Source: Candidatus Eiseniibacteriota bacterium
GTDB taxonomy: Bacteria > Eisenbacteria > RBG-16-71-46 > JABDJR01
Reading direction: 5' to 3'
Assembly (NCBI GenBank): GCA_963783375.1
Contig: CAWANH010000028.1
Location: forward strand, 384,001 to 448,000
Length of the DNA stretch: 64,000 bases
The translations under genes were made by a program, and so were the position numbers. The notes below the pieces were generated by a model. The model searched no databases and was not told the origin of the DNA. It saw nothing but the letters and a program-made list of their open reading frames with translations. The number at the start of each line of letters is the position of its first letter. The stretch's first letter is position 1. Shown here in pieces: positions 49,134 to 49,226 of the stretch.

Positions 49134-49226
49134 ATGTTCAGCATCATCAATCACGCCATGTCGCTCACCGGTGCGTGGGAGTGGCTCGGTGCCTGGGAAT
49201 GGCTTGGCGCCTGGGAGTGGATCTAG
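49134..49226 (+). CDS. 30-aa Trp-rich peptide MFSIINHAMSLT-(GAWEWL)(GAWEWL)(GAWEWI)
   Basis: [14 protein letters not shown]; three 18-nt repeats differing mainly at synonymous sites; stem-loop directly after TAG. Confidence 0.8.
   Translation: MFSIINHAMSLTGAWEWLGAWEWLGAWEWI

Follow-up and report, generated by a model that had tools for sequence, protein, structure and literature searches.

A conserved tandem tryptophan-core peptide of Eisenbacteria as the probable ligand of a neighbouring MASE9 receptor with complementary, putatively split kinase halves

AgrD/AgrC and ComC/ComD are peptide-pheromone two-component circuits. The locus described here, which lies in a 64,000-nucleotide stretch of Candidatus Eiseniibacteriota DNA (the window), resembles them in that a small precursor with a hydrophobic leader is encoded beside a polytopic membrane kinase, with possible autoinduction. 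Unlike in Agr and Com, however, the precursor carries several cores, its gene follows a predicted sigma-54 promoter and enhancer, the sensor has a different fold, and the kinase lacks its phospho-acceptor histidine. The locus also differs in encoding no AgrB, no cognate response regulator and no exporter; AgrB is found in 0 of 5 genomes, C39 domains occur in 4 of 5 genomes unlinked to the peptide locus, and the leader contains no double glycine. By analogy, the locus works like a peptide pheromone with its membrane kinase, yet it is outside the Agr/Com systems.

The sensor domain, MASE9, was defined by Galperin and Chou (10.1101/2021.11.05.467447), who suggested that it binds a ligand within the membrane; in the accessible part of that article the outputs are HD-GYP and GGDEF-EAL, and no ligand is named. 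Compared with these published proteins, the window receptor has a kinase output, an S-component fold model and a candidate peptide ligand. A precedent for dividing a kinase is CheA3/CheA4 of Rhodobacter sphaeroides, in which, according to the portion available to us, the histidine and ATP-binding activities reside on separate proteins, a design modelled as switch-like and bistable (PMC3591291). The paralogues described below share with that pair the split activities and, on the His-bearing half, the phosphatase motif HExxN, to which that article refers. They differ in being full-length transmembrane class I paralogues with complementary lesions, whereas CheA3/CheA4 are soluble class II proteins missing whole domains, and sensing too appears to be divided between them, unlike in CheA3/CheA4. 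A literature search, with subscription journals mostly outside its scope, found no published link of MASE9 to a Trp peptide, an S-component or a pseudokinase.

The features of the locus are given by their positions in the window:
46208..47212, + strand: gene for a secreted M15-type metallopeptidase (Pfam Peptidase_M15_3, 30 bits)
47395..48825, + strand: MASE9-sensor histidine-kinase-like receptor, 476 aa (Pfam, alignment and fold model)
48844..48952, no strand assigned: three inverted repeats GTC-N10-GAC, at 48844-48861, 48867-48884 and 48935-48952 (15-region upstream alignment)
49051..49065, + strand: sigma-54 -24/-12 promoter site CGGCAC-N5-TTGC (pattern and alignment)
49119..49126, + strand: ribosome-binding site AAGGGGGA (sequence and alignment)
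49134..49226, + strand: precursor gene, 30 aa, with the leader at 49134-49169 and three cores at 49170-49223 (sequence and conservation)
49235..49255, + strand: GC-rich hairpin 3' of the stop codon (downstream alignment)
49344..49413, + strand: RNA element of two hairpins, having a C-rich loop and a terminator-like T-run at its end (covariation and terminator scan)
49599..51212, + strand: gene for a 537-aa protein, a syntenic neighbour with no Pfam match

The original prediction of a short ORF behind a strong ribosome-binding site is confirmed, with the ATG at 49134 and the site at 49119-49126; up to the TAG at 49226, the frame translates as MFSIINHAMSLT-GAWEWL-GAWEWL-GAWEWI. In all three pairwise comparisons of the 18-nt units, the L>I change is the sole difference outside third positions, as had been claimed. 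The window has three matches to the degenerate core pattern, where 0.04 would be expected (0/100 shuffles reach three); in this genome GAWEW is present at the peptide locus and, out of frame, at two unrelated sites. With the kinase as query in 61 genomes and the flanks read, we find a matching peptide 3' of the orthologous kinase in all seven other genomes of the family, and screening 206 genomes of the phylum with a profile returns eight orthologues, one copy each and all in a single Eisenbacteria family. The homologous ORFs that were to be sought in relatives are therefore there, with the frame intact in 8/8 family genomes, which are kin rather than independent samples. Further to these, a metagenome pattern scan contains eight precursor-shaped loci among the 120 matches listed, and among 1.84 billion representatives a profile finds 13 matches, all alike in anatomy. 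Three pattern matches fall in viral contigs, none with precursor anatomy, and the ESM Atlas returns unnamed clusters for the peptide (best 0.83), which we take as a lead only.

Throughout the peptide family, the format is a hydrophobic leader of 12-13 residues followed by two or three cores of the form G-x-W-[EQ]-W-hydrophobic, spaced by 6 or 7 residues and with variants such as DWVW and GEIQW, so that the proposed leader-plus-cores layout extends well past the window. When the first two cores are compared with those of the window copy, pS > pN in 14 of 15 cases, with no differences at all in the remaining one, whereas the leader has no such excess in the same comparisons; the earlier claim of selection on the peptide is thus borne out for the cores. 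A 231-nt contig of a relative in one RNA run (0.07 share) spans 49097-49327 at a depth of 3.2 and is at most a weak hint of expression, as a single contig for which a DNA origin is possible. From this conservation we conclude that the 30-aa ORF is a real gene.

The regulatory DNA is conserved along with it. Fifteen of 16 precursor loci have the sigma-54 pattern 75-91 nt 5' of the ATG, a variant being visible in the sixteenth, and a scan for sigma-70 promoters found none. The GTC-N10-GAC repeats are located approximately 100-210 nt farther 5' than the sigma-54 site and form conserved blocks in 15 aligned upstream regions. The long palindrome has a single genomic occurrence, at the peptide locus, in all four family genomes tested (0/1 in a sister-family genome), and only one of the 114 sigma-54-like sites of this genome has two GTC-N10-GAC sites upstream. 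Because the general layout of sigma-54 promoters places activator sites upstream, we read the repeats as likely enhancer sites for a sigma-54 activator. None of about 25 sigma-54 activators, among which some gene calls are in the wrong frame, could be assigned to the locus. Downstream of the gene, the hairpin at 49235..49255, behind which several relatives have a T-run, is likely a terminator. The element at 49344-49413 has compensatory changes in 9 of 20 pairs (12 sequences) and, like the rest of the locus, no Rfam match at threshold; its C-rich loop could putatively pair with G-rich ribosome-binding sites.

The flanking genes differ in how closely they follow the peptide. The M15 peptidase is 5' of the kinase in 7/8 family genomes and 4/5 metagenome loci and is a possible candidate for processing the peptide; its own C-terminal Trp is set aside as what we take to be a family trait. 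The 537-aa protein is found in 12 of 61 genomes from three families (61 homologues, all 'hypothetical'), and in the four genomes outside the peptide family its orthologues have no such peptide upstream (4/4), placing it probably outside the circuit. Elsewhere in the assembly, a six-frame scan finds an array of approximately 20 repeats that recur about every 222 bases (G000:C28:1122500-1126800). Small contigs (C9 and others) nearly duplicate stretches of large ones, e.g., C28:1787000-1794000, which may inflate copy counts obtained from this assembly.

The original prediction had placed the peptide next to a multi-TM receptor kinase. This stands, and the MASE9 identity, the missing histidine, and the sigma-54 promoter with its enhancer go beyond it. 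Pfam assigns the receptor to MASE9 (PF20972; 28.2 bits, cut-off 24.3) with a HATPase_c match and no HisKA match, and the conserved Asn/Ser and aromatic positions of MASE9 are kept. Synteny with the kinase, which had been put forward as a test, is found throughout: the peptide is directly 3' of the same MASE9 kinase in 8/8 family genomes, and among the metagenome matches listed the kinase is present in 5/5 precursor loci with a long upstream flank, the other three precursor-shaped matches having fewer than 400 bases upstream. Among the matches listed, none of the 112 non-precursor ones has MASE9, many of them having short flanks. At one locus (L136), a 710-aa gene lies between kinase and peptide, and at another (L095), no kinase is found within its 367 upstream bases.

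An AlphaFold model of the MASE9 domain built from 63 sequences (pLDDT 91.8) predicts an ECF S-component-like fold. In a comparison with known structures, S-components occupy ranks 1-15 (best 4m5c, Z 14.9, rmsd 3.3, 191 aligned); below the top S-components come MreD at Z 7.5 and another S-component at Z 6.2, with unrelated rows at Z 6.2 or less. The S-component matches are ligand-binding membrane proteins according to their PDB titles, with the caveats that a shared fold is not a shared function and that helical bundles score high by chance. Foldseek against the PDB gives no match at E<=0.001 for MASE9, S-components still ranking at the top. Predicting a complex between the MASE9 domain and the peptide gave no answer (score 0.01, mark 0.32), and we do not count it as evidence.

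MASE9 itself is far more widespread than the peptide: it is present in 186/206 phylum genomes versus 8/206 for the tandem Trp peptide, and a Trp-ended neighbour is found beside 6/39 intact MASE9 kinases, so that adjacency of the two is not the rule. In one family (f16), both MASE9 and the GAIN-like lipoprotein discussed below are absent (0/15 each), and a cross-phylum survey with a single-protein query finds MASE9 in 6/64 loci, all from close relatives. This genome has four MASE9 genes, none of which is an intact kinase, and one of them forms a second peptide-receptor pair, in which a 20-aa Trp-ended peptide is directly 5' of a MASE9-HD-GYP gene:
G000:C29:615826, minus strand: 20-aa peptide MWELLLDLMSVIFEGKSGWM (L053), upstream of MASE9-HD-GYP, in 6/6 orthologues
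The background for such a Trp-ended peptide is 12-76 of 4908 gene flanks. A fourth MASE9-like gene (L203, G000:C29:1155244-1157514, minus strand) carries HD-GYP and PP2C and has no Trp-ended small ORF beside it. A 57-aa lipoprotein-like ORF with a sigma-54 site, which ends in VPDWE and has no MASE9 nearby (G000:C29:938100-938339), is possibly an orphan ligand. In another genome, a secreted small protein ending in GSAWW, convergent with an intact MASE9 kinase (L046:9633-9878, G010), is another type of carrier.

In the window receptor, the phospho-acceptor His is replaced by Arg266 (codon 48190-48192), and the ATPase boxes are intact. All 13 peptide-linked kinases lack this His, having R, Q, V, E, L or S in its place, and all 13 keep G1 and G2; the 39 other MASE9 kinases have both the His and the ATPase boxes, in a count that leaves aside a truncated HD-GYP row and in which one paralogue of the sister-family genome G008 shows degeneration of both parts. 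The reverse lesion occurs in a second paralogue:
G000:C29:664373-665800, minus strand: His-only MASE9 kinase paralogue (L054), His present, no ATPase motifs
This paralogue, which carries HExxN and lacks the N, G1, F and G2 boxes, is present in 8/8 family genomes (partial in G005), placing the His and ATP-binding motifs on separate proteins in all eight. The sensor residues N104, Q107, N166 and P207, which are conserved across the family, do not vary within the His-less clade, but in the His-only clade they are for the most part gone. The complementary His-less and His-only MASE9 kinases, with an apparently degenerate sensor on the latter, are new here.

In a quick tree, the intact kinases of G008 and G009 form the sister group of the His-less clade (support 93), whereas the His-only clade is long-branched and unresolved, and the two halves are not sisters. 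An oligopeptide ABC operon precedes the His-only copy, as it does the intact kinase of G008, which suggests that the His-only copy occupies the ancestral place. Duplication followed by division of labour into a heterodimer would be the simplest reading of this pattern. G006 has two intact MASE9 kinases in addition and one G008 paralogue is doubly degenerate, and thus paralogue decay also happens without a partner.

The Trp core recurs on a second kind of carrier. In the accessible part of Brogan and Rudner (10.64898/2026.05.12.724683), autocleavage of MAIN domains takes place at HFS, autoproteolysis is demonstrated for other MAIN domains, and the role of the tethered peptide is left open; MASE, tryptophan and histidine kinases go unmentioned in the accessible main text. 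The relatives' lipoproteins resemble these domains in their HFS motif, behind which they carry the Trp core, and in a predicted ZU5/GAIN-like fold, whereas the window peptide has no MAIN domain. GAIN-like lipoproteins are found in 114/206 genomes, and 29 of the 31 examined have a Trp motif behind the HFS site or at the C-terminus, often trailed by extra residues; H-x-S is invariant in 29 aligned rows. The one lipoprotein modelled matches ZU5 (3f59, Z 11.7, rmsd 2.2, 107 aligned) and CD97 (9mqr, Z 9.1, rmsd 3.1, 116 aligned). Families other than the peptide family have xAGW where the lipoprotein HFS tail carries EWQW. In G004 and G007, the lipoprotein tails (GEWQWT and EWQWI, respectively) are identical to cores of the tandem peptides of the same genomes, at unlinked loci, and in G006 the match is partial only. 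EWQW is absent from the 1.46 million predicted residues of the window's own genome. As its genus lacks the lipoprotein, the shared-motif link is limited to two related genomes of one genus. In G008, a lipoprotein with a sigma-54 site, ending in GKAGW / HFSTYRPGKAGW, takes the place of the peptide after the orthologous kinase. The MASE9 synteny, the pairing of a peptide with MASE9-HD-GYP, this lipoprotein swap and the shared lipoprotein cores together make the peptide probably the ligand. Of the original alternatives of a signal, a natural product or a regulator of the adjacent receptor, the signal and the receptor-regulating reading are the ones supported by the kinase synteny, the S-component fold model and the core on a second carrier.

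The natural-product alternative draws on a resemblance. According to the accessible parts of the respective papers, the window peptide shares its W-x-W spacing with darobactin and other daropeptides (PMC9055067) and its leader followed by three repeated Trp motifs with WprA, which has three WPR motifs (PMC11851443). For daropeptides and WprA, however, a radical-SAM maturase is part of the definition or of the gene cluster (PMC9055067, PMC11851443, as far as accessible), and none is beside the window gene, as had already been noted from the sequence, or in any locus inspected. A multi-core RiPP precursor could still be cross-linked at W-x-W by a remote radical-SAM or iron-oxidase enzyme in the manner of darobactin or WprA, and this genome does have 27 radical-SAM matches and an orphan MNIO. 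We consider this very unlikely: the best own candidate falls short of the DarE cut-off (41 vs 650 bits, with 5 of the 27 scanned), 0/5 relatives reach it, a clear orthologue of the genome's one RiPP-type radical-SAM enzyme exists in 1/5 relatives only, and the MNIO is found in 4/8 peptide genomes as well as in two genomes without the peptide. Of the two enzymes followed across genomes in the co-occurrence search that had been called for, the orphan MNIO and the RiPP-type radical-SAM enzyme, both are rejected as maturases by their distribution. The W-x-W itself is not strict, being W-E-W three times in the window peptide and I-Q-W in the family member P0073, where Ile replaces the first Trp. 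Because no maturase travels with the gene, the darobactin-like claim is left unsupported, and we do not count the peptide among the daropeptides. The RiPP-type radical-SAM enzyme, encoded at L286 (G000:C28:1443608-1444873) and shared with one relative, scores below all family cut-offs. That the repeat is slippage in intergenic DNA and not a gene, as its short length and lack of annotation might suggest, has a negligible probability, the frame, ribosome-binding site, promoter and Trp positions being kept over 16 loci and 13 library matches with synonymous-biased changes in the cores.

More weight belongs to the alternative that the product stays uncleaved, as a small membrane protein acting as a feedback inhibitor or accessory subunit of the His-less receptor, or that the His-less protein, instead of completing another kinase, serves as a decoy or scaffold and poisons others. 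The leader is only 12 aa long, is hydrophobic in all 16 copies and amphipathic (p<0.05) in 6/16; the locus has no constant processing enzyme or exporter; and ligand binding within the membrane is what Galperin and Chou suggested for MASE9 (10.1101/2021.11.05.467447, accessible part). The residues that often trail the Trp motifs of lipoproteins likewise mean that a free C-terminal Trp is not required. The cores, however, are modular in copy number (2-3) and spacing (6 or 7 residues), as expected of independent units, and the same core is found on a carrier of autoproteolytic type, the lipoprotein; the ATPase boxes are kept in 13/13 His-less copies, and this genome lacks an intact MASE9 kinase that could be poisoned. 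On balance, we regard this alternative as unlikely, if well ahead of a Trp-sensing attenuator leader or dual-function RNA acting on the 537-aa gene through the conserved hairpins. The latter would account for six Trp codons followed by hairpins and a terminator 5' of a same-strand gene, for the covarying RNA element, and, at L095 and L136, for the persistence of the peptide beside the 537-aa gene. The pairings predicted for the coding region, however, barely touch the first hairpin (one pair, p 0.17) and fall short of the terminator 160 nt downstream, the 537-aa gene has no Pfam match and so belongs to no Trp-pathway family, its four orthologues outside the family are without the leader (4/4), and the amino acids that separate the tryptophans are conserved and found again in the tails of lipoproteins, all of which makes attenuation highly improbable.

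We therefore favour, with somewhat better than even confidence, the reading in which the multi-copy Trp peptide is a ligand that gates a complementary split MASE9 receptor kinase, possibly within a positive-feedback loop. At the level of sequence, the comparisons establish the gene, its promoter and enhancer motifs, its synteny, the complementary kinase lesions, and the core in the lipoprotein tails of two genomes. In the proposed mechanism, the leader would bring the peptide to the membrane, where the cores would be clipped to hexapeptides or presented tethered. A Trp core would then, in what we consider the likeliest step, bind the MASE9 pocket of the His-less receptor. This subunit would sense the core and bind ATP, and the His-only subunit, its partner in a heterodimer, would take the phosphate, which we think reasonably probable. 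For the output, we tentatively propose a sigma-54 activator that would bind GTC-N10-GAC and raise expression of the peptide, closing an autoinduction loop. Still more speculative is the full picture of a cell-to-cell circuit, with a Trp-hexapeptide pheromone from a polyprotein-like precursor, sigma-54 autoinduction and an obligate-heterodimer receptor with a vitamin-transporter fold, in which the peptide would be a free-standing, multiplied counterpart of a GAIN-type tethered agonist.

MASE9 had no named ligand, and the locus offers a short, synthesisable candidate together with a matched receptor, so that the question of the MASE9 ligand can be put directly to the test. Should the two kinases pair, they would constitute a natural transmembrane split histidine kinase, and the shared motif would tie free peptide signals to the tethered peptides of bacterial GAIN-like proteins. 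If this reading is true, peptide signalling would be shown in an uncultured phylum.
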